DNA of 64,000 nt from an uncultured Alphaproteobacteria bacterium (GCA_963743565.1 CAVUQD010000002.1:113604-177603); one strand, 5' to 3'; counted from the stretch's first letter, positions 38,458-64,000 are shown. A program made the numbers and translations. Notes: a model not told the origin generated them from the sequence alone.

Positions 38458-38910
38458 ATGACGAGACCCGCCGCGCCGCCTAAATCCACGGATCGCGCGC
38501 GGCGCGACGCGCGCATCCTCAAGGCCGCGACCAAAGGCCAATCTGTCCAAAGCATAGAAAGGGCGCTCAAGGCCGCGGGCTTCAGGCCAATCTCGCGCGC
38601 GCGGCTCATCTCGATCATGAAGCGCGCGTCGTCCGGCGCCGCCCCCGCGCCGATGTCCGAGGACTTCCTCGAAACCGAACTCAAGCGGCTGGGCGAGTTG
38701 CAGAAGGCGTTGCACGCCAAGGCGCTCAAAGGCGACAACGCCGCGGTGGATCGGGTGCTCGCCATTCTCGACCGCCGCGCCAAGCTCCTCGGCGTCGCGA
38801 TTCAGCCGGCTGCGCAGCCCGGTTCCGGCTCAGACGCGAAAACGATCCTGATGCAAAAGCTCGACGCCATGGCGGCGCGTGTCGCACGAGCGCCCGGCAA
38901 CTCTCGCTAA
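38458..38910 (+). CDS. Putative small terminase subunit
   Basis: 150 aa just before the large terminase; HTH-like start and ELKRLGELQKAL..KALKGDNAAVDRVLAILDRRAKLLG. Confidence 0.6.
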   Translation: MTRPAAPPKSTDRARRDARILKAATKGQSVQSIERALKAAGFRPISRARLISIMKRASSGAAPAPMSEDFLETELKRLGELQKALHAKALKGDNAAVDRVLAILDRRAKLLGVAIQPAAQPGSGSDAKTILMQKLDAMAARVARAPGNSR

Positions 38911-38949
38911 CGCCACGAGTAACCTCTCAAAGGCCCCACGACCCCCTCC

Positions 38950-40275
38950 GTGCTCCGCGCCGCCGATCTCGCCAAGCTGCCGCAGGAGGCGCGCGCGGAA
39001 TTCATCGCGCGGCTCTCGCCCGAAGAGGCGGCGCTGCTTCCCTATCTCTGGGAGTTCTGGGCGCGGCCCGAGCAGCTTCCGCCTTCGGGCGACTGGGTCT
39101 ATTGGCTGCCGCTCGGCGGCCGCGGTTGCGGCAAGACGCGCACGGGCGCCGAGACCGTGCGGCGCTGGATCAGGACGAACGCGCATGTGAACGTCATCGG
39201 CGCGACGGCCGACGACGTGCGCGACATCATGGTCGAGGGCGAGTCTGGGATCTTGAACGTCTGCCCGCCCGACGAGCGGCCCAAATTCGTCGCGGCGCGC
39301 AATCGTCTCGAATGGCCGAACGGCGCCAGGACCCTGCTCTTCTCGGCAGAGTCGCCCGAGCGATTGCGCGGCAAGCAGCACGCCAAGCTCTGGTGCGACG
39401 AGCTCGCCGCCTGGCGCTATCCGGAAGCCTGGGATCAGGCGGTCTTCGGCCTGCGTCTCGGCGACAAGCCGCAGGCGGTGATCACGACGACGCCGCGCCC
39501 GACGAAGCTCCTGCGCGAATTACTCGAAAGCCCGCTCACCCACACGACGAAAAGCGCGACCTACGCCAATCTCGCCAATCTTCCCGAAGCCTTCGCGCAT
39601 AAGATTCTGCGCGCCTATGAGGGCACGCGGCTCGGGCGTCAGGAGCTGGAGGCCGAGCTGCTCCTCGACACGCCCGGCGCGCTGTGGACGCGCGCGATGA
39701 TCGAGGCCGCCTATCGCCATACGCCGCCGAAGCTCACGCGCATCGTCGTCGCAATCGATCCGCCGGCAAGCTCGTCGGAACGTGCCGACGAATGCGGGAT
39801 CGTCGTTGCGGGTCTCAGCGCCGAGAAGGAAATCTGCGTGCTCGCCGATGTCACCTCGCAGGGCGACACGCCCTTGCGTTGGGCGGAGCGCGCGATCTCC
39901 GCCGCGCGCCGCTACGAGGCCGACGCCATCGTCGCCGAGGTCAACAATGGCGGCGAGATGGTCGAGGCGGTGATCCGCCAGGTCGACGCCGACATCCGCG
40001 TGAAGTCGGTGCGCGCGAGCCGCGGAAAGTTCACGCGCGCCGAGCCCGTCGCCGCGCTCTACGAACAGGGCCGCGCGCGCCACATCGGCGTCTTCGCCAA
40101 GCTCGAGGATCAGATGTGCCTGATGACGCCGGACTTCGATCGCGCGTCGGCGGGCTTCTCGCCCGACCGAGTCGATGCGTTGGTCTGGGCCGTCTCGGAG
40201 CTCGTCTTCGCGCCGGGCGACGGCTCGGCGATCATCGATTTTTACCGGCGTCTCGCGAGCGACGCGAAGGGATAG
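38950..40275 (+). CDS. Large terminase, RcGTA-like
   Basis: WARPEQLPP.GDW, GGRGCGKTRTGAE, LRGKQH..WCDELAAW, VVAIDPP..DECGIVV, SPDRVDALVWA. Confidence 0.93.
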   Translation: MLRAADLAKLPQEARAEFIARLSPEEAALLPYLWEFWARPEQLPPSGDWVYWLPLGGRGCGKTRTGAETVRRWIRTNAHVNVIGATADDVRDIMVEGESGILNVCPPDERPKFVAARNRLEWPNGARTLLFSAESPERLRGKQHAKLWCDELAAWRYPEAWDQAVFGLRLGDKPQAVITTTPRPTKLLRELLESPLTHTTKSATYANLANLPEAFAHKILRAYEGTRLGRQELEAELLLDTPGALWTRAMIEAAYRHTPPKLTRIVVAIDPPASSSERADECGIVVAGLSAEKEICVLADVTSQGDTPLRWAERAISAARRYEADAIVAEVNNGGEMVEAVIRQVDADIRVKSVRASRGKFTRAEPVAALYEQGRARHIGVFAKLEDQMCLMTPDFDRASAGFSPDRVDALVWAVSELVFAPGDGSAIIDFYRRLASDAKG

Positions 40276-40340
40276 CGATGGCACGGAACCAGCGATCTTC
40301 GCGACTGCACCCTCACTCCTCTGGCGACATCTCTGACGCC

Positions 40341-40485
40341 CCTTGCATCTGATGGCGGCGAGCATGGCGAGCGGTCGGACCTTGTCAAGGATGCGCGTTG
40401 CGCACCGCCTTCGGCGGCGGCCGAAGGCCGTCCTTGACAACGGCCGAACCGTCTCGCCGACAATGCTCCGCCAAGAGATGCAAGG
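40341..40485. repeat. ~145-nt nested inverted repeat (MITE/REP-like hairpin)
   Basis: CCTTGCATCT/AGATGCAAGG, TTGTCAAGGA/TCCTTGACAA and CCTTCGGC/GCCGAAGG pairs. Confidence 0.75.
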
Positions 40486-40632
40486 CGCACTGCAAGCTCC
40501 GGGGATGTTTGGCCACCGGGGCCGACGCCAAGGGGGAAGCCATACGCTTCTCCCTACCTCTCCTCCCCAAAGAGCCGAGTCCATGCCGCAAAGAATCTGG
40601 GCGCCCGAGGGCGCCGCCCCGAGCGCCCACGC

Positions 40633-42033
40633 ATGAACGCGCGCGATTCTCAAGCCGGCCGCCCCTCCTGGTCGCTTTCGCCGCAAGACCTCACGGTCTC
40701 CTACGGGCAGGCGCAGTTCATGTCCTCGCGGGGCGAGGCCAATGCGTCCGGCTGGTTCGGACCGCTCGCGCCGCTCGCCCCCATCGCGCCCAAAGAGGTC
40801 GCCGGGCGGCAGTTCGATTTCCCCTCGGGCTACAATATCGCCATCGGCACGCGCGCCTACGAGCCGATCACCTTTCACGATCTGCGCGCGCTTGCTGAAA
40901 CTTACGATCTGCTGCGCCTCGTCATCGAGACGCGCAAGGATCAGATCGAGCGCATGAGCTGGTCGCTGCGTCCGCGCCCCGGAAGCGACGGTCCCGGCGC
41001 CGCGCGCATCAAGGAGCTGACGCGCTTCTTCCACAAGCCCGACGGCGAGCATTCCTTCGCCGCCTGGCTGCGCATGCTGCTCGAGGACCTGCTCGTCATC
41101 GACGCGCCGACGCTCTGGAAGCAGCGCGCCCGCAACGGGTCGCTCCTGGCCTTGCATCCGCTCGATGGCGCGACGATCAAGCGCGTCATCGACGACTGGG
41201 GGCGCACGCCGCAAGCCTTCGTCGGCGATGACGGCGCGCTCGTCTATCCAGCCGCCTATCAGCAGGTGTTGAAGGGCTATCCCGCCGTCGACTACGCCGC
41301 GCGCGATCTGATCTATGCGCCGCGCAATCTGCGACCGGGCCGCGTCTACGGCTTCTCGCCCGTCGAGCAGATCGTGATGACGGCGAATATCGCGCTGAAG
41401 CGCCAGATCTTCACGCTGACGCATTTCACCGAAGGCAATATCCCCGAAAGCCTCATCGGGGTGCCGGAGAGCTGGACGCCCGACCAGATCAAGAATTTCC
41501 AGGACTATTGGGACGCCTATTTCACCGGCGATCTCGCCGCGCGCCGCCGCGCCAAATTCGTGCCCGGCGGCGTGGCGAAAACCTTCATTCAGACGAAGGA
41601 GCCGGAGCTCAAGAATCTCTTCGACGAATGGCTGGCGCGCGTCGTCTGCTACGCGTTTTCAGTTTCGCCGCAGGCTTTCGTGAATCAGCTCAATCGCGCG
41701 ACGGGAGAGACGCAAAAGGAGCTCGCGGAAGAGGAAGGGTTGTGGCCGATCCTGAAATGGGTGAAGCGGCTCATCGATCGCGTGCTGATTGAGGATTTCG
41801 ACGAAGAGGACGTCGAATTCGTCTGGGGCGAGGACGCGCAAGTCGATGTTTCGCAGCAGGCGCAAATTTTGACGAGCTATGTCGCCGCGGGGATTCTGAC
41901 GCGCAACGAAGCGCGCGCGCAGCTCGGACAAGCGCCAGTCGATAACGCTGGCGCCGATGCGCTGCTGGTGACGACGGGGAGCGGGCCGGCGCCGTTGCCA
42001 CAGCTTACGACCGTAGACGTGGGCCTCGTCTAA
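40633..42033 (+). CDS. Phage portal protein
   Basis: 466 aa; FAAWLRMLLEDLLVIDA, LHPLDGATI, VYGFSPVE, FTEGNIPE. Confidence 0.88.
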   Translation: MNARDSQAGRPSWSLSPQDLTVSYGQAQFMSSRGEANASGWFGPLAPLAPIAPKEVAGRQFDFPSGYNIAIGTRAYEPITFHDLRALAETYDLLRLVIETRKDQIERMSWSLRPRPGSDGPGAARIKELTRFFHKPDGEHSFAAWLRMLLEDLLVIDAPTLWKQRARNGSLLALHPLDGATIKRVIDDWGRTPQAFVGDDGALVYPAAYQQVLKGYPAVDYAARDLIYAPRNLRPGRVYGFSPVEQIVMTANIALKRQIFTLTHFTEGNIPESLIGVPESWTPDQIKNFQDYWDAYFTGDLAARRRAKFVPGGVAKTFIQTKEPELKNLFDEWLARVVCYAFSVSPQAFVNQLNRATGETQKELAEEEGLWPILKWVKRLIDRVLIEDFDEEDVEFVWGEDAQVDVSQQAQILTSYVAAGILTRNEARAQLGQAPVDNAGADALLVTTGSGPAPLPQLTTVDVGLV

Positions 42034-42109
42034 ACCCGCGACGCGGCGTCCCGCGCATTCACACTCTCGGCTCGCCTCGCGCGGGTCTTTTCTTTGGGAG
42101 CAACCCCGC

Positions 42110-43297
42110 ATGGCCGAATTCAATCTCTTCATTCCGCTGACCAAGGCCGACGCGAAGCGGCGACTCGTCTATGGCGTCGTCACGGCAGAGGCGCCCGATC
42201 GCGGCAATGAGATTTGCGACTATGCGACGACCAAGCCCTATTATCAAAAGTGGTCGGCGGAGTTCCTGAAGGCCTCCGGCGGCAAGAGCCTCGGCAATCT
42301 GCGCGCCATGCACGGCAAGATCGCGGCGGGGCGGCTCGAAGCCATCAACTTCAACGATGACGAGAAGCAGATCGAAATCTGCGCGAAGATCGTCGACGAC
42401 GCCGAATGGTGCAAGGTCGAGGCCGGCGTCTATACCGGCTTCTCGCAGGGCGGCGGCTATGTGCGGCGCTGGAAGGACGCGAACGATCCGACTCTCACCC
42501 GCTACACGGCGAATCCGAGCGAGATATCGCTCGTCGATCTGCCAGCGTTGCCCAACGCGACCTTCTCGCTGATCAAGGCCGACGGCGCCGTCGAAACGCA
42601 AGGCTTCGCCATGCATGAGAGCGCCGGCGAGGTCGAGCAGGTCTGGATGGCCCAGGACGGCAAGACGTTCAAGAAGAAGGCCGAGGCGCTCGCGCATCAG
42701 ATGGCGCTCGCGAGCATGGGACCGATGCTCGGCGCGCTCGCACGGGCGGAAAGCGATATCGACGGCGTGCGTCTTATGCCGCGAAAGCGTCCGGAGCGCG
42801 AAAAGCTCGTCAAGCTGCTCTCCGAGCAGGCGCTGGACGCGGCGCGGGCGGTGGCGGCGCTCGAGATCGTCTTCGATATCCTCAACAACGCGCTCGACGA
42901 TGATGACGCCTCGGACGAGATTTCGGCGCTCGCTCAAGCGATCGAGGAGCTGAAGCAATTCATCGCCTCTCTCCTCCTGGTGCATGACGAACCGCTGGCG
43001 CAGAGCGTGGGCGGTCAAGATCTCGCCAAGGCGCTGGAGGAGACGCGGCTCGAACGCGACGCGCAGCGCGCGCTGCTCGAAGAGCTCACGCCACGGCTCG
43101 AGAAGCTCGCGGCGCGCGTCGAGGAGATCGGCCGCCAGCCGCTGCCGCCGCCCCTGCTCGCGGGAACCCGCGCGATTGAGAAAGGCGCCGAGACGCAGCA
43201 GGAGGATCTCGCCGCGGCGCTGGCCAAGATGAGCGGCGAGGAACGCGCCAGGCTCCTCATCAAGGTCGCGCAACGTCAACCCGCGCCGCTTCGCTGA
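42110..43297 (+). CDS. Prohead protease / scaffold protein
   Basis: RRLVYGV..PDRGNEI, NLRAMHGKIAAG, YTGFSQGG, EISLVDLPALPNA; coiled-coil C-terminus. Confidence 0.82.
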   Translation: MAEFNLFIPLTKADAKRRLVYGVVTAEAPDRGNEICDYATTKPYYQKWSAEFLKASGGKSLGNLRAMHGKIAAGRLEAINFNDDEKQIEICAKIVDDAEWCKVEAGVYTGFSQGGGYVRRWKDANDPTLTRYTANPSEISLVDLPALPNATFSLIKADGAVETQGFAMHESAGEVEQVWMAQDGKTFKKKAEALAHQMALASMGPMLGALARAESDIDGVRLMPRKRPEREKLVKLLSEQALDAARAVAALEIVFDILNNALDDDDASDEISALAQAIEELKQFIASLLLVHDEPLAQSVGGQDLAKALEETRLERDAQRALLEELTPRLEKLAARVEEIGRQPLPPPLLAGTRAIEKGAETQQEDLAAALAKMSGEERARLLIKVAQRQPAPLR

Positions 43298-43365: not shown

Positions 43366-44871
43366 ATGAACATTCACGCGACCACGCACGAAGTCCTTCA
43401 GGCCATCCGCAAGGCGCAGAGCGTCTCCTTGACCGATCCGCGTCTCGGCGGACTGGAGAAGAGCACCTTCCAGCAGCCGATTAGCGCGACAAGCGGCCTC
43501 AACTTCTACGATCTCGAGCCCGGCGCGAAATTTCTCGTCCCGGTGCTGACGCCTCTGCGCAATGAAACGCCGCGCGTCTCCGGCATGGGCGGCATTCAGG
43601 CGAATTGGCGCGCGATCACCGGCGTCAATACGACGGGGCTGCGTCTTGGCGTTTCGGGCGGCAATCGGGCCGGCGTGCAGGCGGTGACGACGACCGACTA
43701 TTATGCTTCCTATAAGGGGATCGGTCTCGAGACGAGCGTCGATTTCGAGGCGGAATATGCCGGCATGGGCTTCGACGACGTGCGGGCCCAGGCGGGTCTT
43801 CGAGGACTTCAGGCGACGATGATCGGCGAGGAGGCGCTAATCCTCGGCGGCAACAGTTCGATGCCGCTCGGCGTGACGCCGACGCCGACGCTCACCGCAT
43901 CTTCGAGCGGCGGCGGGCTCGCCTCGGGAACCTTGTCCGTCATCTGCGTCGCGCTGTCGCTCGACGGCGTCATCAACGGCTCGGTCGCCACTGGAATTCA
44001 AGGGCAGATCACGCGTCCCAACGCCGACGGCTCGTCGGACAGCTTCGGCGGCGGCGCGGCTCAGAGATCCGCCAACGCCACCGTTTCGGTCACCGGCCCG
44101 ACGGGGCTCGTCACGGCAACCGTCGCGGCCGTGCGCGGCGCGCTGGGCTACGCCTGGTTCTGGGGCTCGACCGGATCGGAGGTTCTAGGCGCCATTACGA
44201 CGATCAACTCCATCGCGATTTCCGCGACGGCGGCCGGAACGCAGACCACCGCCTCGCTTACGACCGACTACTCGACGAACGCGCTGGTCTTCGACGGGCT
44301 TCTGACCATCGCGCTGAAAGCCGGCTCCGGCGCCTATGTCGCCCAGCAGCCGACGGGAACCGGCGCCGCCGGAACGCCGCTCACGGCCGATGGCGCGGGC
44401 GGCGTGGTCGAGATCGATGCCGCGCTCAAATCCATGTGGGACAATTTTCGGCTCTCTCCCGACACCATTTGGGTGAACAGCCAGGAGGCGCTGAACGTCT
44501 CGAAGAAGATTCTCGCAGGCGCCGCCAATTCGGCGCAGCAATTCGTCTTCAACGCGGCGCAGGACGCGATCAACGGCGGCGTGATGGTGAGAAGCTACCT
44601 CAACCGCTTTTCCATGAGCGGCGGCTCGACGCTCGACATCAGAGTGCATCCCAACCTGCCGGCCGGGACGATCCTGATGACCTCGCGCTCGATCCCCTAT
44701 CCGCTGTCCGGCGTCGGCAACGTATTTCAAATCCGCACGCGCCGCGACTATTACCAGATCGAGTGGCCGCTGCGCTCGCGGCGCTATGAATATGGCGTCT
44801 ATGCGGATGAGGTGCTGCAGCATTATTTCCCGCCTTCGATGGCGGTCATCACCAACATCGCCAACGGCTGA
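43366..44871 (+). CDS. Major capsid protein (with Ser/Gly/Thr-rich insertion)
   Basis: 501 aa after the protease; LVPVLTPLRNETPRV, PDTIWVNSQE, IRVHPNLP, YEYGVYADEVL. Confidence 0.75.
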   Translation: MNIHATTHEVLQAIRKAQSVSLTDPRLGGLEKSTFQQPISATSGLNFYDLEPGAKFLVPVLTPLRNETPRVSGMGGIQANWRAITGVNTTGLRLGVSGGNRAGVQAVTTTDYYASYKGIGLETSVDFEAEYAGMGFDDVRAQAGLRGLQATMIGEEALILGGNSSMPLGVTPTPTLTASSSGGGLASGTLSVICVALSLDGVINGSVATGIQGQITRPNADGSSDSFGGGAAQRSANATVSVTGPTGLVTATVAAVRGALGYAWFWGSTGSEVLGAITTINSIAISATAAGTQTTASLTTDYSTNALVFDGLLTIALKAGSGAYVAQQPTGTGAAGTPLTADGAGGVVEIDAALKSMWDNFRLSPDTIWVNSQEALNVSKKILAGAANSAQQFVFNAAQDAINGGVMVRSYLNRFSMSGGSTLDIRVHPNLPAGTILMTSRSIPYPLSGVGNVFQIRTRRDYYQIEWPLRSRRYEYGVYADEVLQHYFPPSMAVITNIANG

Positions 44872-44942: not shown

Positions 44943-45776
44943 ATGGCGACGGGCGATCTCGTGCAGCTTGCCACGGTCAAGAACTGGCTCGGCGTCACCT
45001 CTTCCGCCGACGACGCGTTGCTCAGCGCGCTCATCACGCAGATCAGCCGCGCGATCTACAACTACATCAACCGATCCTTCGTGCTGCCGTCCAATGTGTC
45101 CGAAGCCTATGACGGCTCGGGCCGCGAGAGCCTGATCCTGCGCAACTGGCCGGTGGGCGCGATCAGCGCGGTTGTCGTCGACGGCAAGCCAATTCCGCCC
45201 GCCCCGCTGATGCTCACAGGCGTAGAGCCCGCGCCTGGATACGTGCTGGAGCAGGCGGACGATCAGCCGCCGGGCGCGATGCAGCAACTCTTTCTGCGTG
45301 GCCCCTATCGCTTCCACAAAGGCCGCCAGAACATCGTCGTCTCCTATCGCGCCGGATACGAAATTGTCGGAGAAGCGCAGAGCGTGCCGACACAGGCGCC
45401 CTTTCAATTCACGGCGTTCTCGCCTTACGGCGTCTTTGCCGAGGACACGGGCGTCGCCTATGCGAATGGATCGCCGCTGAGCGCCGTGGCCGCCAATCCG
45501 GGCGCGGCCCAATATACGGTGGATGCGACGAGCGGAACCTATGGCTTTTCCGCCGCCGACGCCGGCGCGGCGCTCACGATCTCCTACGGCTACATCCCCG
45601 CCGATCTCGCCCAATGCGCGCTCGAATGGGTCGCCGACCGCTATCGCTACAGGGACCGCATCGGCGTTGCGAGCCGAAGCCTCGGCGGCCAGGAGACGAC
45701 CGCCTATCAGAATCGGGCTATCCCCGATTTCGTCGTCGCCTCGCTCGTCAATTTTCGTCGCATCATCGCCAACTGA
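44943..45776 (+). CDS. Head-tail adaptor (gp6-like) with an inserted beta-rich module
   Basis: LATVKNWLG..DDALLSALITQISRAI..YINR at the start; IPADLAQCALEWVA..SRSLGG at the end. Confidence 0.75.
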   Translation: MATGDLVQLATVKNWLGVTSSADDALLSALITQISRAIYNYINRSFVLPSNVSEAYDGSGRESLILRNWPVGAISAVVVDGKPIPPAPLMLTGVEPAPGYVLEQADDQPPGAMQQLFLRGPYRFHKGRQNIVVSYRAGYEIVGEAQSVPTQAPFQFTAFSPYGVFAEDTGVAYANGSPLSAVAANPGAAQYTVDATSGTYGFSAADAGAALTISYGYIPADLAQCALEWVADRYRYRDRIGVASRSLGGQETTAYQNRAIPDFVVASLVNFRRIIAN

Positions 45777-45779
45777 ACC

Positions 45780-46247
45780 ATGCTCAGCGTCGATATCCAA
45801 GGCGCAGACGCGCTCGACGCGCGTTTGGCGACGCTCTCGGTCGCCGTCCGCGACGCGCTCGCGCGAAAGATCGAGGACCTCGCGGAGCGCCTGGAGCAAA
45901 GGATCAAGGATAATCTCTCCGGGACGGTGTTGCAGGCGGAAAGCGGCACGCTACGCGATTCGATCGAGGTGAGATTCGAGCCTTCCGCCGCCGCGCTCGT
46001 GGCCATGACGAAATACGCCGCCGCGCAGGAATATGGCTTCGTCGGCGAAGAGAGCGTTTCAGCGCACAGCCGCGAAATCAGAGAAGCCTTCGGCCGCACG
46101 ATCGCCCCCAAAACCATCTTCGTTCGCGCCTTTTCGCGGACCATGAATCTGCCCGAGCGCAGCTACATGCGGTCGGCGCTCGACGAGATGCAAGACGAGA
46201 TCGCGGCGGCTCTCTCCGACGCCGTCGAGGAAGGACTGAGCGCATGA
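45780..46247 (+). CDS. Neck/tail-completion protein (HK97 gp10-like)
   Basis: SGTLRDSI, KYAAAQEYG, PERSYMRSAL. Confidence 0.7.
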   Translation: MLSVDIQGADALDARLATLSVAVRDALARKIEDLAERLEQRIKDNLSGTVLQAESGTLRDSIEVRFEPSAAALVAMTKYAAAQEYGFVGEESVSAHSREIREAFGRTIAPKTIFVRAFSRTMNLPERSYMRSALDEMQDEIAAALSDAVEEGLSA

Positions 46248-47491: not shown

Positions 47492-47502
47492 GGGAGCGCC
47501 CC

Positions 47503-48615: not shown

Positions 48616-48729
48616 CAGGTTTTCCGCATCCTCCCGAATCAACTTTCACGCGAAATATACAGCCAAAAATTCGAGATTTCGCTCCGCCGAAGCGCAAGCG
48701 TCGGCCAATCCCGAGAAGGAGTCGCCGCC

Positions 48730-56659: not shown

Positions 56660-57207
56660 TGAGCACACAAGTTCAACTGCGACGCGATAACGCTGCGAAC
56701 GTCGCCGCCTTCGCGGGCAAGCCCGGCGAGGTCATCGTCGACACGACGAACAACCGCCTCTGCCTGCAAGATGGCGCGACCGCCGGCGGCATTCCGGCCG
56801 CGAAGCTCTCCGAGGTCGTCACGCTCGGCGCAACCTCACTGCTCGCGCAGGCGCCGCATGGCGGCGCCGTCAGCATCGGTTGCCTCGAGCAGCTCATTTC
56901 TCTCTCAGGCGCGACGACGACCTCGACGGTTCAAATCCCCGCCGGCGCGATCGTGATCGCCGTCTCCAACCTTGTCGTCACGGCGATAACGGGCGCGACC
57001 TCCTATAGCTGCGGCGTTTCGGGCAACTCCACGCAGTTTGGCTCATCTCTCGGCGTGAGCGCGGGCTCGACGAACCTCGGCCTCATCGGACCCAATCCTT
57101 CTTACAGCGCCACACCCGTCCTGTTCACCGCCGCAGGCGGCAATTTCACGGGCGGCCAGGTGCGCATGACGATCCACTATCTCATGCCAAGCGTCGCTAC
57201 CTCCTAA
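56659..57207 (+). CDS. Small tail-fibre-like protein with an Mtd_N-like N-terminus
   Basis: MSTQVQLRRDNAANVAAFAGKPGEVIVDTTNNRLCLQDGATAGG resembles the major tropism determinant N-terminal domain. Confidence 0.7.
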   Translation: MSTQVQLRRDNAANVAAFAGKPGEVIVDTTNNRLCLQDGATAGGIPAAKLSEVVTLGATSLLAQAPHGGAVSIGCLEQLISLSGATTTSTVQIPAGAIVIAVSNLVVTAITGATSYSCGVSGNSTQFGSSLGVSAGSTNLGLIGPNPSYSATPVLFTAAGGNFTGGQVRMTIHYLMPSVATS

Positions 57208-57303
57208 AGCGACAAACCTTTCGTCTAACCCCAGAAAAACGAACGTCGTCGCGCGCGGTGATTCGCGCGCCGTTCCACGCGCGCGCTGAATAAGGAGCCT
57301 TCG

Positions 57304-59412
57304 ATGCAATGGAAGAATCCCGATGGATCGATCACGACTGGCGTCGTGGTCGAGGACGGCGCCGGAAACAAGATCACATCCTTCTCGGGCGTCGGCGGCT
57401 CAAACGCCAATTTCACACCGAACGGCAACACGGCGCAGCTCTCCGTTTCCTCGGCTAGCGCGCGCGTCGCGCTGCCAGCCGGCGCGACTGTCATGGTGTA
57501 CAACACCGGGCCGCAGCCAGCTTTTGTAGCTTTCGGCGGCAGCGGCGTGCTGGCGACGATCGCAAGCGATGAGGTGCCTTCCGGCGGCGCGTTGCCCTTT
57601 GCGCCGGGCTCCGCGACTTATATCGCCGCAATCACGGCGAGCGGCGCAACGAACCTCAACATTACGGGCGGCTCGGGCCTCGGTTTCGCGCTGAGCGGCG
57701 GCGGCGGTGGCGGCGGCGCCAACGCCTCTGTGAGTGCAACCGGCTCGACGGCTCCGAGCTCAGCGACGGAAGTGGGCTTCATCGACAGCTCAGGCAGTTT
57801 GCGCGCGCCGTCGAAGACCTATCCCTTCCCCAACGCGATCACCGACCCCGCGGCCGGATATCAGTCCGCCGTGCTCGCCTTCCACAACACCGACAACCAA
57901 GCGCTCAGTGGAACCACCTACGGGCTCAACACCGGCGGCGTCGCGCAGCTCGTCAACAATGTGGGAAATCTCGACCGGCAGCGGGAGACAGGCTTCGACG
58001 GCATTCCCTCCGTCGGCGTCTCCGCGGGCGCGCAGCAGCTCGCCGGGCCGCCGCTTTCGACGACCGTCACCTCCGGCGCGATCACCGCCTCGGGCTCGCC
58101 GCAGAACGTCACGCTCGGCGCGATCTCCTTCACCAATCGCGGCGTGACGACGGTCTTGCAGGCCGGCTCTCAGCTCCTCGTCGACGCGGCCGCGAATCAG
58201 GAAGCCGTCTTTCTAACTTCGGTCAACACCTCGACCAAGGTCGTGCAGGCGATCTTCGCCAAGAGTCATGCGGCGAGCGTCGGCGTCTCCGTCTTCGCGT
58301 ATAACCAGGCGCGCGACGCGACGATCCCGGACGGCTCGACGCCAGCGGGCATCGCGGCGAGCGCCGCCTATTTCTTCAACGCGCCGGCGCAGACCGTCGA
58401 GATGGAGCGCTCCGCCGCCGGCGAGCTTGACGGCGCCACGGGGATCGGCACGGCGCTTGCTGCCGAATATGAGTGGAACGCCGGCGGTCCGCTCACCAAC
58501 GCCGGCGCGATCTCGGGACTGGCCTTCGATCGTGCGCGCAATCTGCAGGGCAAGGGCGCCGGCGGCTCGACGCTTAACGGCACGGTCGCGGCGGGCGCCG
58601 CTTCACTGACGCTCAATGCAGCCGTGGGACTCAATCCCGGTCAACAAATCCGACTCGACGCGGGCGCAGGCGTCGAAGAGTCGGCCTATGTCTCGCCGAG
58701 CTACACGGTCGGCTCTCTCGCCGTTCCGCTGCAATCGGCGCTCGCCAATGCTCACTCGAATGGCGCGACGGTCGCCTGGGATGTTTTTGTCTCGGCGGGG
58801 CCAGGCCTCAACGGCTTCACGCCGACCGGCGTCGGGATCGAGGAGGAGGCGCTCTACGATCCCGTTTCGGCCAAATATTACATCGAGCGCGCCGCGACGC
58901 AGGACGGCTGCGCGCCGCAAAACGTCGTCATCGAAGCGCCGGGGCTGTGGAACGGAACGACGATCGACCGTGCGCGCGAGGTCATCGGCGACGGCCAGGC
59001 CGCCACCGGCATCGCCGTCAAGGCGCTGATGCTTTGGAACGGCGCGACCTACGATCGCGCCAGCGGCAGCGCCGCCTACGGCCTCTATGCGGCGCCGAAG
59101 CCGCTCGCCCCGGTCGCGACGAGCGTGGCGGCCTCGTCGCTGGTGCTAAAGAGCGCCGCCGGCAACCTCATGAGCCTGATGGCCACCTCGACCGTCTCAG
59201 GGTGGCTCATGCTCTTTGACGCGACCACGGCGCCGGGAAACGGCGTCGTCACGCCGAAGTGGGTCTACCCGATCGCCGCAGGCGGCGCGCTCAACATGGC
59301 GTGGCCCAACCCACTCGTCTTTGTCACGGGCGTCGTCGCGGTCTTCTCGACGACCGGCCCCTTCACGCTGACGGCGAGCGCGACGGCCTTCATCTCCGGG
59401 CAGGTGCAATAA
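57304..59412 (+). CDS. Large beta-rich hypothetical protein (fibre/spike-like)
   Basis: 702 aa, Gly/Ala/Ser/Thr-rich, recurring DRxR..G motifs. Confidence 0.65.
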   Translation: MQWKNPDGSITTGVVVEDGAGNKITSFSGVGGSNANFTPNGNTAQLSVSSASARVALPAGATVMVYNTGPQPAFVAFGGSGVLATIASDEVPSGGALPFAPGSATYIAAITASGATNLNITGGSGLGFALSGGGGGGGANASVSATGSTAPSSATEVGFIDSSGSLRAPSKTYPFPNAITDPAAGYQSAVLAFHNTDNQALSGTTYGLNTGGVAQLVNNVGNLDRQRETGFDGIPSVGVSAGAQQLAGPPLSTTVTSGAITASGSPQNVTLGAISFTNRGVTTVLQAGSQLLVDAAANQEAVFLTSVNTSTKVVQAIFAKSHAASVGVSVFAYNQARDATIPDGSTPAGIAASAAYFFNAPAQTVEMERSAAGELDGATGIGTALAAEYEWNAGGPLTNAGAISGLAFDRARNLQGKGAGGSTLNGTVAAGAASLTLNAAVGLNPGQQIRLDAGAGVEESAYVSPSYTVGSLAVPLQSALANAHSNGATVAWDVFVSAGPGLNGFTPTGVGIEEEALYDPVSAKYYIERAATQDGCAPQNVVIEAPGLWNGTTIDRAREVIGDGQAATGIAVKALMLWNGATYDRASGSAAYGLYAAPKPLAPVATSVAASSLVLKSAAGNLMSLMATSTVSGWLMLFDATTAPGNGVVTPKWVYPIAAGGALNMAWPNPLVFVTGVVAVFSTTGPFTLTASATAFISGQVQ

Positions 59413-61268
59413 TGATGAAGCGCTTTCTTTTCTCCACAGCGCTGTCCTTCAGCCTCGCGCCCGCGCTCGCGCAAGAGGGCGGCTCGTTTGTTCCAGGCGG
59501 CTCGAGCACGCTTACGCCCGGCTCGACGTCGACCTCTGGCTTCTCCGCGGGACAACTTTTGTACAGCAATGGATCGACTTTGCAGGCGCTTGGGCAGGGC
59601 GTCTCGGGACAATTCCTGCAGAGCAATGGCGCCGGCGCGACGCCGAACTGGGCGAGCGCTTCGGGCTCCGGCACGGTCAACAGCGGGACGCAATATCAGG
59701 TCGGCTGCTATCTGACGACGGGCTCCGCGATCTCCGGCTGCGGAAACCTTACGCTGAACGGCGCGACGGCCGCGATCGGCGCCAACGGCACGCCGGGAAA
59801 CTTGCTCGTTTGGGGAAATATCGCGGGCCAATCCTCGACGCTCAGCGCCTCGACCTATTCGGGCGCGACGAGCTTCGTCATGCCCTATTCGGGCACGGCG
59901 AACGATCCATTGCTTTCCGCAGCCTCCACCGCGACCCTCAGCAACAAGACCTTCTCGGGCGCGACGAATGTCTGGCAAGGCGGCGTCATCGGCGCGACTT
60001 ATGGCGGGACCGGCGTCAATAACGGCTCGAGCACGATCACGCTCGGCGGATCGCTCACCTTCTCTGGAGCCTACACCTTCGCCGGCACACTGACCGGCGC
60101 GACCGCGATCACCTTCCCGACCTCCGGCACGCTGCTCGCCAATCCGATGACGGCGCCAGGCGATCTGATCCTCGGGGGGACGGCCGGCGCTCCGTCTCGG
60201 CTCGCGATCGGCTCGAACAACACCTGCCTCACCAGCAATGGCGCGACCGCAAGCTGGGGCTCCTGCGGAACTGCATCGCCCGGCGGCGCGAGCGGACAGA
60301 TCCAGATCAACAACGCCGGCGCCTTCGGCGGCTCGGCGAACCTCACATGGTCCAGCCCGGCGCTGACGATCGGCGCACAGGGAACGACGCTCGGTCAGCT
60401 CGCGCTCGCCTCCTCGGCCGCTTTCACGACGACGCTCCAGCCCTCGGCCTCCGCCACGGCTTCCTACACGTTGACGCTGCCGCCCGCGGCGGCGACCGCC
60501 GCGCAATGCCTGCAGACGACGGCGGCGGGCGCCGCGCTCACCTTCGGCTCCTGCGGCGGCGCGGCGACTCTGGCGGTCGGCTCGACGGCGACGAGCGGCG
60601 GCGCGGCCGGGCAGATCATGTACGACACGGGATCATTGCTGCAGGAGCAGGCGAATTTCGTTTGGGACTCGACCAACCACAGCTTCAACCTCTTCAACGT
60701 CACCGGCACGAATTACGAGCAGTTCAATCTGGGCTGGTCGTCGAACGTCGCGATGCTCGCCATCTCCAAAGGTGGCACGGGCACGCTGCGCAACTTCGAG
60801 CTGACGGTCGGCGGCACGAATATCCTCGACTATGGCGTGCAGACGGCGAGCACGCTCACGCTCGGCGCCAACGGCACGGCCAATGTGGTGACGGGCGGCG
60901 GCGGAGTTGGCTTCAATAAAAGCGGATCGGGCGCAAACGCGGTTATTGTCGCCGGTTCCTCCGGTTACGGATGGGCCAGCGCTGGCTCCGTCACCACAAT
61001 TCCCGCTGCCGATACGTCTCTCTGCCGCGCGGCGGCGGGCGTGGTCGAAGTCGGCTCGGGCTCCAGTTGCGCGACCACGGGAACCCTTCGCGCGAAGGTC
61101 GTCGGAACGCCAACGGGCTACACGGTCGCGACGCTCCCGACCGGAACGACTGGCGACCGCACCTATGTCACCAACTCGACGTCCTGCACGAAGAACGGAA
61201 CTTTGACGGGATCGGGATCGATCTTCTGCGCCGTCATCTACAACGGCTCGGCATGGGTGGGCGAGTGA
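59412..61268 (+). CDS. Fibre-like Gly/Ser/Thr-rich protein with an N-terminal signal peptide
   Basis: TAATG overlap; MMKRFLFSTALSFSLAPALA signal; TLPPAA and TLSNKT fibre-type motifs. Confidence 0.65.
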   Translation: MMKRFLFSTALSFSLAPALAQEGGSFVPGGSSTLTPGSTSTSGFSAGQLLYSNGSTLQALGQGVSGQFLQSNGAGATPNWASASGSGTVNSGTQYQVGCYLTTGSAISGCGNLTLNGATAAIGANGTPGNLLVWGNIAGQSSTLSASTYSGATSFVMPYSGTANDPLLSAASTATLSNKTFSGATNVWQGGVIGATYGGTGVNNGSSTITLGGSLTFSGAYTFAGTLTGATAITFPTSGTLLANPMTAPGDLILGGTAGAPSRLAIGSNNTCLTSNGATASWGSCGTASPGGASGQIQINNAGAFGGSANLTWSSPALTIGAQGTTLGQLALASSAAFTTTLQPSASATASYTLTLPPAAATAAQCLQTTAAGAALTFGSCGGAATLAVGSTATSGGAAGQIMYDTGSLLQEQANFVWDSTNHSFNLFNVTGTNYEQFNLGWSSNVAMLAISKGGTGTLRNFELTVGGTNILDYGVQTASTLTLGANGTANVVTGGGGVGFNKSGSGANAVIVAGSSGYGWASAGSVTTIPAADTSLCRAAAGVVEVGSGSSCATTGTLRAKVVGTPTGYTVATLPTGTTGDRTYVTNSTSCTKNGTLTGSGSIFCAVIYNGSAWVGE

Positions 61269-61282
61269 AGAAGGAGAGACGC

Positions 61283-61561
61283 ATGAAGCTGAGCATTGGC
61301 GCGTTTGCGGCGATCGTGTTGTTGTCGCTTCCGGCTTTTGCCGAAGTTCCAGACCTCCCGAGCGCGGCGCCGCCCGCCGCGGAAAAACGCGTCACGGATT
61401 TAGAGCAGCAGGTCACAGTCCTTTCCGAGCAAGTCAAACGCGCCGACGCGATCATTGCCGGACTTTCCCGCCAACGGAACGAAGCGATGGACCGCGCCCT
61501 GCTGATGGAGACGCGCGCGCTCGCGGCCGAAGCTATCATTCCCAAGGACGCCAAAAAATAA
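61283..61561 (+). CDS. Small signal-peptide coiled-coil protein
   Basis: RBS AAGGAG; MKLSIGAFAAIVLLSLPAFA then a heptad region. Confidence 0.7.
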   Translation: MKLSIGAFAAIVLLSLPAFAEVPDLPSAAPPAAEKRVTDLEQQVTVLSEQVKRADAIIAGLSRQRNEAMDRALLMETRALAAEAIIPKDAKK

Positions 61562-61571
61562 GGATCGATCG

Positions 61572-63734
61572 ATGTTTCGAGGCCTGGCTCTCAACCGAAT
61601 CGCGGCGGTGGTCCTTCTTTTGGCTGGAGCATCCTTCATCCCGCTTCTTATCGCCATTGGCGCGATTTTCTTGGCGGCGCGCGAGGCCCATACCGCGCCG
61701 CTGCCAACCGCCCTGACCTTCCTCGGCTACGGGCAATCCACGATGCAGGCGCCGGGCACAACCGTGCTTTCCGCCGGCCTCACCTGCACCTTCTCGACCA
61801 CGAGCGGCGGCCAGGTCACGATCGCCGGACTCAGCGGCACGCCGCTCTCCGGCGTGCTCTCGGGAGCCCCGCTCGCGGCGGCCGGTCTACCGACATCGCC
61901 CGCGCTCATTCAGACGACCGGTTTCGTATCGGGCACGAGCGGCGGCAACGGAACCTATTCCGTCAACGTCTCGACGACGCTTGGTCCCGTCGGCTGCTAT
62001 GTCGGGACAGAAACGACGTTCGGCGCGTCGCTAACCGGATCGAACATCAATTCCAACGCCTTCATGATCAACACGAGTCCGGTTCTCGGGCCGCGCGCCA
62101 TGTGGGAGACGCTCAACGGCTCGAACTGCAACAATTCCAAGCCCGTCATTCCGTCGAACTGGTCGGGCTTCGCATTGCTGAAAGAAACAGCCTACAGCCA
62201 GAGCTGCGGCGGCGGCTTCCTGATCGAAACGCCGCTATCGAGCTTCGTTGCGCAGTTCATCGCGCAAACCGGCTGGAGCGCGCCGAACGCCGTCGTCGCC
62301 GCGAACATGGCGCATGGCGGTTTGGACTGGAACGCGACGCAACCGAACACGCTCTCGCCCGGAAGCAAGAGCACTTCCGACTGGACTAATCTCGTCACGG
62401 CGCAGAAATATATCAAGAACGCCGTGCAATCGAACGCGAGCGCGCTGCCGGGCATCACCGGGCCGTGGACCTATCGCCTCGGTGGCGTTCCGCTGCGCCT
62501 CGGCGAGAGCGCGGCGGCGCCGTCGAGCGGTATGGCCGCGACCGCGGCCTTCACGACCTCCTCGGCGACGATCCCTGTCAATACGAATACCTACAACCTA
62601 AACATCGCAGGCTGGTGCGTCTATGACTCCACGGCGAGCGCCTTCATCGGCTATGCGGTCTCCTGGACTGGAACCACGCTCACGCTGCAATCCGCGAGCC
62701 TCGCGGCAAGTTCCGGATCGACCGACAACTTCTATATTTCGCCCTGCTATGCGGGCTACCTCGCCACGCTGCAATCCATCGTGGCGCAACTCACGGCGTC
62801 AGACGTCTCCGACGCGCCCAACCCCGCCGGCGTGCCGATCTTCGCCACGGCGCCGTCATCGACCAATTTCACGGCGGCGCAGGGCCAGTTTCAATTCGTC
62901 GTCAACGCCGCGATGGTGACGGAAGCGCTCGCCGATCGCCGCTACGTCCATGCCGGGCCTGGCTTTATTGGGAAGTTTCAGAGCGACTCTGTCCATCAGG
63001 AGCCGCACGGCAACGCGATGGCCGGCGCCTATATGGGAAAATGGGCGGCGTGGACTCTGACGGGCAAGCGGACGCCGCCCTTCGCGATGATCTCCGCGCA
63101 ACGCCTCGGGCCAGGATCGGTCGATGGCAACGGCTCGCACTATGGCGTGCGCGTGACCTTCCAAATGCCGCCGTCTCAGCCCTGCGTCGCGCCCGGCGCG
63201 AACGGGCAGAGCTGCGCGTCAAACGTTTCGGCGGCGCAGCAGCAGGTCTTGCAGTTCTACAGCGACGGCGACATTCCGCTTTGGACAGGCGGCAACTACG
63301 GCTTCTGCTATACGGACGGGGCCTATCCGGCTGGCGGCTCGACCTTCTTCAAATATTGCGGCGCGGCGGCCAGCGGCATTTCGATTGCGAGCCTTCCGAT
63401 CCTCGCGACGTCGAACAGCTACACGGCGGGCGGACAGCCGAACCAGATCGACATCGCGCTGACGGGCGACCCCAACACGGCGAGCAATCCGACCATTAGC
63501 CTCGGCGCGGCTTCGACCGGCAATGGCATTACGATCTGGGGCGTCGCCAACGTGCATCTCTATCTGCACAACGTCGCGAACAAGGATTGCACGATCCCCG
63601 GCAATTCGGCTCTCTCGGGCAACGCGTACAAGAACGCGGTTTGCGACGGCGTCGGAACGGCGCTCAACTATCTCATCGACTTCGCGGCGCCGAGCTTCAT
63701 CGGCGTCGGCCAGACTCTCACGACGGCATGGTGA
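61572..63734 (+). CDS. SGNH/SASA-like carbohydrate esterase domain protein with a hydrophobic N-terminus
   Basis: FLGYGQS (block I-like), MAHGG, LRLGES, DSVH (DxxH-like). Confidence 0.6.
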   Translation: MFRGLALNRIAAVVLLLAGASFIPLLIAIGAIFLAAREAHTAPLPTALTFLGYGQSTMQAPGTTVLSAGLTCTFSTTSGGQVTIAGLSGTPLSGVLSGAPLAAAGLPTSPALIQTTGFVSGTSGGNGTYSVNVSTTLGPVGCYVGTETTFGASLTGSNINSNAFMINTSPVLGPRAMWETLNGSNCNNSKPVIPSNWSGFALLKETAYSQSCGGGFLIETPLSSFVAQFIAQTGWSAPNAVVAANMAHGGLDWNATQPNTLSPGSKSTSDWTNLVTAQKYIKNAVQSNASALPGITGPWTYRLGGVPLRLGESAAAPSSGMAATAAFTTSSATIPVNTNTYNLNIAGWCVYDSTASAFIGYAVSWTGTTLTLQSASLAASSGSTDNFYISPCYAGYLATLQSIVAQLTASDVSDAPNPAGVPIFATAPSSTNFTAAQGQFQFVVNAAMVTEALADRRYVHAGPGFIGKFQSDSVHQEPHGNAMAGAYMGKWAAWTLTGKRTPPFAMISAQRLGPGSVDGNGSHYGVRVTFQMPPSQPCVAPGANGQSCASNVSAAQQQVLQFYSDGDIPLWTGGNYGFCYTDGAYPAGGSTFFKYCGAAASGISIASLPILATSNSYTAGGQPNQIDIALTGDPNTASNPTISLGAASTGNGITIWGVANVHLYLHNVANKDCTIPGNSALSGNAYKNAVCDGVGTALNYLIDFAAPSFIGVGQTLTTAW

Positions 63735-63739
63735 CGCTG

Positions 63740-64000
63740 ATGTCTCTTAGCAGCATTTTGAGGCGGGCGACTGCAGCCTCGCCGTTCCTGATCGGTATTG
63801 CGTTGACGCTCTCGACGGTCGCCGCCTTCGGCGGATGCGGCGTGAGCTGCTATCCCGGAGAAGAGCAGATAGGCCTCTGGCCAAACGTGATGGCCGACCT
63901 CGTCGCGCAGCCGGCGTCTTCTTCCAACGCTTATTGGGACGAACAGCAGCAGGCGTACAACTGGCTCACGACTTCCGCGCCGACGCTAACGAGCAACGTC
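63740..64000 (+). CDS. Hypothetical protein, truncated by the window end, signal-peptide-like start
   Basis: ATG 63740 is open to the end; MSLSSILRRATAASPFLIGIALTLSTVAAFG. Confidence 0.55.
   Translation, partial: MSLSSILRRATAASPFLIGIALTLSTVAAFGGCGVSCYPGEEQIGLWPNVMADLVAQPASSSNAYWDEQQQAYNWLTTSAPTLTSNV

Follow-up and report, generated by a model that had tools for sequence, protein, structure and literature searches.

Gene transfer agents (GTAs) are particles that package random host DNA, in amounts smaller than needed to encode the particle. Other particle genes persist in chromosomes as defective prophages, such as PBSX of Bacillus subtilis, which carries xre, and the vertically inherited defective prophages of enterobacteria reportedly described by Bobay, Touchon and Rocha in 2014; both keep structural and lysis genes under purifying selection and do not propagate autonomously. 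The RcGTA-type agents of Alphaproteobacteria, RcGTA of Rhodobacter capsulatus and the Caulobacter GTA (PMC9632790), are encoded by chromosomal head-tail clusters without integrase or replication genes. The isolated Brevundimonas siphophages vB_BpoS-Polewnik and Strzyga (ON529863, ON529867; PMC10070969) are 62 kb long and have genes for replication and for nucleotide metabolism (helicase, ribonucleotide reductase, ThyX).

Here we describe a 32.6 kb phage particle cluster, with packaging, head, tail and lysis genes, in a Methylocystis-like bacterium. Its origin lies in a lineage of Polewnik-like siphophages, which occurs widely in Beijerinckiaceae chromosomes in the form of integrase-less clusters. 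We lean towards reading it as a long-resident, non-autonomous phage-particle cluster of the domesticated or defective-prophage type with a GTA-like organisation.

Gene content and boundaries of the cluster

The cluster starts at position 38,330 of the window (the whole 64,000-nucleotide stretch that was analysed) and runs to C2:184,503, ~6.9 kb past the window end (~70,900 window-equivalent), flanked by the host genes pgeF on the left and a SpoU methylase on the right. Pfam, NCBIfam and PHROG domain matches establish that the packaging-head-neck-tail run proposed in the initial annotation is real, and the GC content of its genes (62-67% vs 63% for the genome) is host-like, as stated there. The genes listed from terS to the fibre all lie on the + strand, and the 153-aa cargo gene lies on the - strand.

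38330..38457, +, element left end and leader, directly before terS
38348-38353 and 38371-38376, promoter-like site by our own reading of the sequence (TTGACG, 17-nt spacer, TATAAA)
38398-38420, GC-rich hairpin, then a T-run; terminator-like match between the promoter-like site and terS
38458..38910, +, putative small terminase TerS, 150 aa, by position only, directly upstream of terL
38950..40275, +, large terminase TerL, 441 aa (Terminase_6N and Terminase_6C)
40276..40632, no strand, non-conserved spacer; a 97-aa ORF is not maintained
40633..42033, +, portal, 466 aa, toxin-less form (Phage_portal)
42110..43297, +, head maturation protease/scaffold, 395 aa (phrog_21715 and weaker protease phrogs)
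43366..44871, +, major capsid protein (MCP), 501 aa (phrog_13692, E 9e-137)
44943..46699, +, head-tail connector (277 aa), gp10-like protein (155 aa) and tail terminator (151 aa) (Phage_connect_1, HK97-gp10_like, phrog_442, phrog_4204)
46745..47491, +, tail tube, 248 aa (phrog_8234, E 3e-59)
47526..48152, +, probable tail assembly chaperone, 208 aa, from its position between tube and tape measure
48181..48642, -, 153-aa cargo gene (moron), function unassigned (dN/dS 0.15 vs 2.1 for the overlapping + strand ORF)
48730..50037, +, tape measure protein (TMP), 435 aa (phrog_2854)
50034..52505, +, 823-aa baseplate protein, megatron-type GTA_TIM barrel fused to DUF2460 (distal tail) (PF13547, E 1e-82; PF09343)
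52502..53104, +, second distal-tail (DUF2460-like) protein, 200 aa, by similarity to relatives
53101..53973, +, baseplate hub, 290 aa (PF09931, DUF2163-type, and PF09356, BR0599)
53970..54440, +, NlpC/P60 cell-wall peptidase, 156 aa (TIGR02219, E 1e-19, below cut-off)
54437..56659, +, tail-tip protein, 740 aa, equivalent to the C-terminal megatron part (Phage-tail_3 and Rcc01698_C)
56659..59412, +, Mtd_N-domain protein (182 aa, PF18454) and 702-aa fibre candidate
59412..64000, +, three ORFs with signal-peptide or membrane-anchor N-termini (618, 92 and 720 aa), then the beginning of a further ORF
Past the window to C2:184,503, 543-aa ORF, Amidase_2, Phage_lysozyme2, OMP beta-barrel and ORFs of 82, 273, 78 and 114 aa

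The intact virion genes, and the several cluster ORFs that have no family match, would fit an active temperate prophage whose integration or replication system has gone unrecognised. However, host genes abut both ends. The left flank consists of lgt, Methyltransf_28 and pgeF and has no phage early genes, in agreement with the earlier observation that integrase, replication and early genes are missing on that side. The right boundary, which the initial annotation had singled out for inspection, adjoins host genes as well, and no integrase, replication or repressor gene was found in the cluster, its right end past the window included. We also found no att-type repeat at the cluster ends and no tyrosine integrase on the contig beyond 23 kb, so the cluster lacks the set expected of a temperate prophage (integrase or recombinase, att repeats, repressor, replication module); no holin was recognised in it either. 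Given also that its junctions are identical in six species and that its dS equals flank dS in two species pairs (see below), we consider an active prophage very improbable.

A module shared with isolated siphophages

The head-to-tail-tip module is collinear with Polewnik and Strzyga at 35-59% amino acid identity (one value of 32% apart), and the shared stretch from terL to the tip includes the RcGTA-like baseplate genes. Against Polewnik, the series terL, portal, protease, MCP, neck, tube, hub, NlpC and tip gives, in order, 47, 51, 51, 59, 35, 32, 41, 46, 35, 41 and 41% identity. Within it, TerL stands at 47%, the portal at 51%, the protease/scaffold at 51% (gene at the equivalent position), the MCP at 59% (Polewnik/Strzyga gene), the tube at 46% (gene at the tube position), the NlpC/P60 peptidase at 41% (endopeptidase) and the 740-aa protein at 41% (tip attachment protein). 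The MCP is also 31% identical to the one annotated in Arthrobacter phage Sonali; its AF2 model is poor. Unlike the two phages, the cluster described here carries no non-structural genes, and its TMP is far shorter (435 aa vs 967 aa). The mixture of RcGTA-type and other genes had been taken as the mark of a domesticated particle; that argument falls, since isolated phages have the same order of terL, portal, MCP, tube, hub, NlpC and tail tip. Nor is the short TMP a special trait, because 435 aa is typical of the cluster family (356-487 aa).

The module is found again in hundreds of Beijerinckiaceae genomes, with 388 relatives of the portal, as integrase-less chromosomal clusters of 28-33 kb, a family for which we found no name in the literature searched. 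Clusters of this size, bounded by host genes, occur in Methylocapsa polymorpha RX1, MAG077 and MAG118, and share the gene order from portal to Mtd_N with ours; two of these three have no tyrosine integrase within ~300 kb, and in the third the nearest lies 18 kb off, behind host genes. Element identity correlates with host-flank identity (r = 0.83-0.93). In relatives from other genera, an S24 repressor and a DUF6456- or DUF6362-type gene stand at the left end, and the S24 (LexA/CI-type) repressor parallels xre of PBSX. This repressor module is absent beside terS and elsewhere in our genome, so that, in contrast to PBSX-type elements, this copy has lost it or never had it; the siphovirus type with an RcGTA-like baseplate is a further difference.

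Of the remaining genes, terS is 40-43% identical to its equivalent in the G024 and G013 copies and has no Pfam or NCBIfam match. The chaperone candidate, which matches no family, is conserved in G019 and G065, and the 153-aa cargo gene, without a Pfam match, has homologues in the G024, G013 and G023 copies. The second DUF2460-like protein shares 66% identity with a 222-aa G024 gene and 34% with the C-terminal end of the 823-aa protein; a 551-aa gene of the MAG077 copy shares 40% with the fibre candidate. The ORFs at 59412..64000 have no Pfam or PHROG match; they are 60-64% identical in G065 and G019 with dN/dS of 0.28-0.45, and we class them as variable distal cargo or receptor-binding genes.

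In the sister copies of G019, G024 and G023, exchangeable toxin domains sit on the portal C-terminus, followed by orphan cassettes and immunity-type genes. This resembles the MuF polymorphic toxins (Jamet et al. 2017, PMC5576092; Zhang et al. 2012, PMC3482391), except that the carrier is the portal itself and not MuF; the Polewnik and Strzyga portals have a weak MuF-type C-terminus. The portal of our genome bears no toxin: it stops ~10 residues past a conserved pre-toxin segment, whereas the same segment runs on into toxin domains in G019 (Tox-REase-5) and G024. The spacer downstream of terL is a position that holds immunity-type cargo in relatives, including a 2.2-kb insert with an Imm52 gene in G024; the equivalent of its 97-aa ORF has 7 stops in G019 and no match in G065.

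Relation to RcGTA-type clusters

We compared the cluster with the canonical RcGTA-type cluster of the congener G010. The division drawn in the initial annotation between RcGTA-type and other genes was borne out: TerL is 53%, the hub 31% and the megatron 32% identical to the G010 counterparts, while tblastn with the G010 portal, capsid and tube gave no match in this genome. RcGTA-type TerL and baseplate hub are thus present (hub vs TIGR02218: 81.7 bits, cut-off 80.5), and no RcGTA-type portal, HK97-type capsid g5 or tube g9 was found. PDB sequence searches returned an RcGTA chain for the 823-aa protein only (megatron 6tba, residues 221-765, E 2e-58); they gave no match for MCP, tube or terS, and no RcGTA portal. 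The GTA_TIM domain is of RcGTA type, as first proposed, but its location needed correction: it is fused ahead of DUF2460 in the 823-aa gene and is not part of the 740-aa gene. A full-length megatron (NF048004, cut-off 800 bits) is lacking, as the match is split over two genes, the 823-aa protein (386.7 bits) and the 740-aa protein (positions 890-1170, 98.8 bits), with no further match in the genome.

The cluster therefore resembles RcGTA-type GTAs in being a head-tail cluster in the chromosome that lacks integrase and replication genes, in its vertical inheritance under purifying selection, and in its homologous TerL, hub (TIGR02218), NlpC/P60 peptidase and megatron domains. It differs in size (32 kb vs ~15 kb), in a portal, MCP, tube and terS that are unrelated at the sequence level, in a megatron whose TIM barrel is fused to the Dit domain and whose C-terminal part is a separate gene, and in having lysis genes within the cluster and no GafA in the genome.

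Could the cluster nonetheless be a true GTA that packages and transfers random host DNA, having replaced an RcGTA-type system lost by the lineage? The restriction to structural and lysis genes, the vertical inheritance with host-like omega and the RcGTA-like TerL and baseplate are consistent with this, as is a weak DUF6456 (GafA-type) gene adjoining the cluster in some relatives (PMC9638019). This genome has no canonical GTA cluster, and the canonical megatron is absent from all 19 element-bearing Methylocystis genomes and from 10 genomes of other genera but present in 42 of the 59 other Methylocystis genomes. However, a single event on the host tree would explain this exclusivity, and GafA (DUF6456, PF20057), present in congeners with canonical clusters, is absent here. 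Unlike in classic GTAs, moreover, the capsid is probably full-size: at 59% identity, the MCP matches that of a 62-kb phage whose head measures 58 nm, so the capacity is probably >32 kb and the whole cluster could fit. Sister copies have decayed as well. Replacement by a true GTA seems unlikely, and GTA activity is doubtful.

Inheritance and decay in sister species

The initial annotation had suggested looking for synteny next to pgeF and at dN/dS. The cluster lies beside pgeF in six sister species, and both junctions (pgeF|SpoU) are common to 6/6 clade members, this genome included; it has occupied the same chromosomal junctions since before the six-species split. The G019 and G065 copies at this locus show ~85% nucleotide identity. 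Core genes co-diverge with their flanks: against G065, dS is 0.50 and omega (dN/dS) 0.126 for the core vs 0.48 and 0.116 for the flanks, and against G019 the values are 0.51 and 0.127 vs 0.53 and 0.109. TerL has a dN/dS of 0.07-0.08. The equality of core and host flanks points to vertical inheritance under purifying selection.

Every gene is intact only in the genome studied here, and 5/6 syntenic copies carry independent deletions, frameshifts or stops. The G065 copy has a 5' deletion in terS, a GAG to TAG change in terL and frameshifts in MCP and TMP, although these frameshifts could be assembly errors, G065 being a MAG. The G019 copy misses protease and MCP, and those of G109, G110 and G031 are mostly deleted. 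This pattern would suit a neutral relic, an old and functionless defective prophage that is decaying as in the sisters and has not yet been damaged in this species; the lack of a regulator in the genome (neither a DUF6456/GafA nor an S24 repressor homologue) and the terminator-like hairpin upstream of terS point the same way. Against it, omega is 0.13, as in the host flanks, over a dS of ~0.5 in two independent pairs, whereas long neutrality of either copy would have brought pairwise omega towards 0.5. In addition, >20 ORFs are intact with core gene lengths that are all family-typical, and even the non-coding leader is conserved. We therefore regard a neutral relic as unlikely, if still a serious alternative.

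The leader upstream of terS

The leader is kept in 12/12 Methylocystis copies examined, at both locus types, and its conservation holds across copies with dS of ~0.9. If the hairpin between the promoter-like site and terS acts as a terminator, the operon may be silent. A helper-dependent element would account for this arrangement: its late operon would be read through only with an antiterminator or activator from a related co-resident or infecting phage, and the cluster would serve as a structural-gene reservoir or a parasite. Compatible with such a scheme are the strong promoter-like site with a hairpin and T-run behind it in all 12 copies, the want of an own regulator, and further prophage-like regions elsewhere in the genome: C1 has a terL paralogue at 873 kb, and C6 a lysis cassette at 79-84 kb. 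However, we identified no candidate helper regulator, and co-divergence with the host speaks against mobilisation. Promoter and terminator are, moreover, consensus readings: the automated promoter scan did not call the TTGACG/TATAAA site, and the hairpin shows no covariation although its stem is conserved. Helper dependence thus appears improbable.

Predicted particle and its consequences

Under the reading that we favour, a long-resident and non-autonomous particle cluster, a trans-acting factor would switch on the late operon. DNA packaging by TerS and TerL would be of the headful type, into heads of ~58-60 nm, the 435-aa TMP would set a tail ~65 nm long, the baseplate would carry cell-wall hydrolases, and the amidase and lysozyme would lyse the producer cell. 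As the cluster has no replication or integration functions, its particles could only move host DNA, by generalised transduction or in a GTA-like manner, or act as killing particles.

Gene content and boundaries of the cluster

A tight run of same-strand genes begins at window position 38,458 in this 4.25-Mb, 63% GC genome, and both its GC and its third-position GC are host-like. The whole element, from about window 38,330 to window-equivalent 70,900, measures 32.6 kb. Domain and PHROG searches confirmed the packaging, head, neck and tail genes that the initial annotation had recognized here.

Genes of the cluster and its flanks, from left to right (C2 is the contig that contains the window, which occupies C2:113,604-177,603)
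Left flank: host genes lgt, Methyltransf_28 and pgeF
First gene of the run: putative small terminase (terS), named from its position only
TerL: large terminase, Terminase_6N/6C domains
Portal: 466 aa
Protease/scaffold: after the portal gene
Capsid protein (MCP): 501 aa, phrog_13692, E 9e-137
Connector, gp10-like protein and tail terminator: after the capsid gene
Tube protein: phrog_8234
Chaperone: between tube and tape measure
Window 48181-48642, minus strand: 153-aa gene between tail chaperone and tape measure
Tape measure (TMP): 435 aa
823-aa protein: GTA_TIM barrel, then a DUF2460 domain
Second DUF2460 protein: after the 823-aa gene
Hub: TIGR02218, barely above cut-off
NlpC/P60 peptidase: after the hub gene
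740-aa protein: Phage-tail_3/Rcc01698_C
Mtd_N protein: after the 740-aa gene
Fibre candidate: 702 aa, after the Mtd_N gene
Window 59412-63734: three co-oriented ORFs 3' of the fibre gene, with Sec-type signal peptide or double membrane-anchor starts
Beyond the window end: further ORFs, Amidase_2, Phage_lysozyme2, an OMP beta-barrel gene and four small ORFs
Right flank, from C2:184,506: SpoU methylase, GHMP kinase, acyl-CoA dehydrogenase, icd, greA and carB

The three ORFs that follow the fibre gene vary more between species than any other part of the cluster, and starts of their kind are unusual among virion proteins. Pfam found no domain in the small right-end ORFs or in the minus-strand 153-aa gene, and their PHROG matches were weak (phrog_19005; phrog_1193, "hemolysin", E 6e-4). 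The 153-aa gene is kept in both locus types (between pgeF and SpoU, and elsewhere in related Methylocystis copies), its dN/dS of 0.15 indicates purifying selection, and it has a paralogue on another contig at C1:1,033,557-1,033,919. An FMN reductase gene adjoins it in the copies of the type found in G024, a congener with the other locus type.

Beyond the right end of the window, where the initial annotation could not see the boundary, host genes resume at C2:184,506 with no integrase or replication gene. No ORF of the element matches an integrase, recombinase, repressor or replication protein, and the only tyrosine integrases on the same contig lie more than 125 kb away. An att-like repeat is absent, the longest word common to both junctions being 11 nt, within the shuffle range; internal direct repeats within the window are insignificant. 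The cluster is not an active prophage.

At window 38286, just 3' of pgeF, other Methylocystis species carry the orthologue of a gene that in the source genome sits at C8:372,961-373,632; the left junction of the element thus coincides with a rearrangement breakpoint specific to a six-species clade. Between dcd and lgt, a 2.5-kb low-GC (~51%) insertion (window 32918-35419) contains a 633-aa ORF without a Pfam match, and is missing from G065 and G110 of that clade, where dcd adjoins lgt. Elsewhere in the source genome, a second TerL, 51% identical, lies at C1:872,841-874,010 with an integrase nearby (C1:879.8 kb), and C6:79,300-83,750 holds a prophage-type lysis cassette similar to that of the copy in G019, another clade member, which suggests other prophage-like regions in this genome.

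A phage lineage distinct from RcGTA

The isolated Brevundimonas siphophages Polewnik and Strzyga carry a gene 59% identical to the MCP, and the entire structural module is collinear with Polewnik. Amino acid identities to Polewnik are 59% for the MCP, 51% each for portal and protease, 47% for TerL, 46% for the tube, 41% each for terminator, NlpC/P60 and tail tip, 35% each for connector and hub, and 32% for the gp10-like protein. The reading of the mosaic composition as a sign of domestication was therefore not borne out, since the same module occurs in an isolated phage. Polewnik, a siphovirus of 61.9 kb, has a head of 58 nm and a tail of 149 nm (PMC10070969), and its 967-aa TMP is consistent with that tail length. 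By the same TMP-to-tail rule, the 435-aa TMP would predict a tail of ~65 nm; TMPs of 356-487 aa are the normal range in related chromosomal clusters.

A canonical RcGTA-type cluster is absent from the source genome according to a GTA_TIM/megatron profile search, whose only matches were two genes of the cluster, both far under the NF048004 cut-off. Compared with the canonical cluster of the congener G010, the element's TerL is 53%, its hub 31% and its megatron 32% identical, whereas the G010 portal, capsid and tube match nothing anywhere in the source genome. PDB sequence searches agree: the 823-aa protein aligns with the RcGTA megatron over residues 7-615 (6tba, E 2e-58), and the sole match of the portal is a non-RcGTA phage portal. 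The initial division into RcGTA-like and non-RcGTA-like proteins was thus correct, with TerL and baseplate related to those of RcGTA-type GTAs and portal, capsid and tube not. PDB searches returned nothing useful for MCP, tube, terS or the 740-aa protein, and an AlphaFold2 model of the MCP from a 20-sequence alignment reached a mean pLDDT of 46. We place the element outside the canonical RcGTA family, three defining features of which were looked for and not found. Particles of classic GTAs are too small for their own cluster, whereas kinship of the capsid to that of a 62-kb phage suggests that the predicted particles of this element would probably not be.

Inheritance, selection and decay at the pgeF locus

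A first scan detected the MCP in 5 of 36 congeners; 24 other families of the order gave no match. The patchy distribution that this implied was overturned by the two species closest in pgeF identity, G019 and G031, which carry traces of the element at the locus. In G019 the cluster lies between pgeF and SpoU at ~85% nucleotide identity, equal to its flanks; protease and MCP are missing, and the MCP has no other copy in that genome. In G031 only 200 bp from the start of terS and a few genes at the far end survive. Searching species representatives with the portal brought in G065, whose copy is collinear throughout its 32.9 kb, and a junction probe across all 78 genomes of the genus revealed two more remnants at pgeF|SpoU (G109 and G110) and a related copy at a different locus in 13 species. 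Both junctions are common to six species, so any loss of early genes, if they were ever present, predates the divergence of these species.

Substitution rates of the cluster and its flanks (Nei-Gojobori, own script; length-weighted means)
Window copy vs G065, 15 core genes: dS 0.50, dN/dS 0.126
Window copy vs G065, 11 flanking host genes: dS 0.48, dN/dS 0.116
Window copy vs G019, 13 core genes: dS 0.51, dN/dS 0.127
Window copy vs G019, flanking host genes: dS 0.53, dN/dS 0.109

The match in dS between element and flanks indicates co-divergence with the chromosome, and the low dN/dS, ~0.13 and close to that of the flanks, indicates that purifying selection acted on both members of each pair for the greater part of this period. 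The synteny next to pgeF and the selection that the initial annotation had proposed to look for are thus both present.

The window copy is the only one in which all core genes are intact and of family-typical length. In G065 the 5' half of terS is deleted, terL has a GAG to TAG change, MCP and TMP are frameshifted and a distal ORF contains a stop, while the 11 flanking host genes are clean; G065 is a metagenome-assembled genome, and its frameshifts may be assembly errors. In G109, G110 and G031 most of the copy is gone. With five copies broken and pairwise dN/dS low, either the damage must be recent or selection has been episodic. Such decay would suit a silent relic, a reading we consider rather unlikely given the purifying selection and the intact window copy.

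Relatives in the Beijerinckiaceae and portal toxins

The portal has 388 relatives among species representatives, and those at ~60% identity are mostly from Rhodoblastus, Methylocapsa, Methylocella, Methylovirgula and Beijerinckia. Clusters in these genera have two types of left end. In one, the order is host genes (often PPDK and MeaB), weak DUF6456-type gene, HTH/S24 repressor, terS, terL; in the other it is host genes, 110-aa gene, S24 repressor, 112-aa gene, weak DUF6362-type gene and another type of TerL. Homologues of the GTA activator GafA are annotated as DUF6456 (PMC9638019), and the match in the first type falls under the Pfam cut-off. The clusters of Methylocapsa polymorpha RX1 and of two chromosomes from metagenome-assembled genomes span 28-33 kb with host genes on both sides; two have no tyrosine integrase inside ~300 kb, and in the third the nearest is 18 kb off, behind host genes. 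Two unassigned ORFs in the M. polymorpha copy yielded no recombinase match in PDB sequence searches. Host-gene and element identity correlate at r = 0.83-0.93 across seven loci flanked by an FGE-sulfatase gene, and only moderately in the MeaB-locus group (r = 0.27-0.42), where ORF calls are noisy. The strong correlation at the FGE-sulfatase loci and the host-gene boundaries make the whole family look non-autonomous and inherited with the chromosome. For copies of the G024/G013 type, an integrase lying 14 kb rightward had raised the possibility of full prophages; we rejected this, as host genes abut terS on the left and no integrase ORF was noticed in the corresponding stretch of G013.

In three sister copies the portal gene runs on into a polymorphic toxin domain (Tox-REase-5 in G019).

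Regions of the sister copies with toxin-bearing portals (L-numbers denote loci)
G019: L055:360-2585, minus strand
G019: L054:16400-20000
G024: L010:8419-13600
G023: L016

In the sister copies the toxin portal is followed by a lower-GC stretch of 3-4 kb with DUF7945 and DUF4926 genes, where the portal "pre-toxin" segment recurs in two or three displaced copies, an orphan-cassette architecture like that of CdiA/Rhs loci. In addition, a CdiA-CT RNase-A-type ORF is inserted 3' of the GTA_TIM-Dit gene in G019, and an Imm52 gene sits between terL and portal in G024. The Polewnik portal (L002:15667-17991, 774 aa) has a weak C-terminal Phage_Mu_F match (E 6e-6, under the cut-off) and may represent a fusion of portal and MuF at the place where the chromosomal relatives bear toxins.

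Leader sequence and absence of the canonical GTA

The left-end regulator module is missing from the window copy, with no homologue elsewhere in the source genome. The leader is kept in 12 of 12 Methylocystis copies of both locus types: TTGACG, a 17-nt spacer and TATAAA are followed by a GCCCGG...CCGGGC hairpin with a T-run, and terS begins ~30 nt later. The TTGACG-N17-TATAAA site went uncalled in a promoter scan, and the hairpin exhibits no covariation or compensatory changes. Phage late operons under antitermination control have a constitutive-looking promoter followed by a terminator, and by analogy we infer that the leader layout would fit such an operon.

The canonical megatron occurs in 0 of 19 element-bearing Methylocystis genomes and 0 of 10 element-bearing genomes of other genera, vs 42 of the remaining 59 Methylocystis genomes. 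Fisher's test gives p = 1e-8, a value that we discount as meaning little, since all element-bearing genomes fall on one side of a 99/99 branch in a two-gene host tree and a single historical event suffices. The pattern may thus reflect one loss or replacement. gafA (DUF6456) is likewise absent from the element-bearing genomes tested (the source genome, G005, G013, G015 and G019). Replacement of the canonical system by the element is compatible with this distribution, which is no demonstration of it.

Interpretation

On sequence evidence, this particle cluster belongs to a Polewnik-like lineage, is fixed in the chromosome, has been shaped by selection and is organized like a GTA. The original proposal of an uncharacterized GTA lineage gains from vertical synteny, purifying selection and the lack of an integrase at the right end, and loses in that the mosaic belongs to a phage lineage outside the canonical RcGTA family. 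On balance, we lean towards the cluster being maintained as a potentially functional particle cluster; genuine GTA activity appears unlikely.

To our knowledge, all experimentally studied alphaproteobacterial GTAs of the RcGTA kind stem from one domestication. The Beijerinckiaceae clusters could conceivably represent a second, independently domesticated GTA lineage that combines a Polewnik-type head and tail with an RcGTA-type baseplate. Such a system would take the place of the canonical one in lineages that lost it together with gafA, would be controlled either by an S24 repressor together with a GafA-like factor or through antitermination in the conserved leader, and, through many copies with swappable portal toxins, would yield particles delivering DNA and kin-discriminating toxins. 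We regard this combined proposal as speculative and doubtful as a whole.

Our analysis suggests that a phage lineage separate from that of RcGTA has also given rise to a particle cluster that is inherited with the chromosome and evolves as fast as host genes. Among the genomes examined, the element is known from methanotrophs and their relatives, only where the canonical GTA is absent. The six-species series, from intact to nearly erased, is a natural experiment on element retention and loss. If inactive, the cluster would be a well-dated case of slow prophage decay. If active, it would be a new gene-exchange vehicle in the environmentally important Beijerinckiaceae, with a possible role in bacterial competition via the portal toxins of its relatives.
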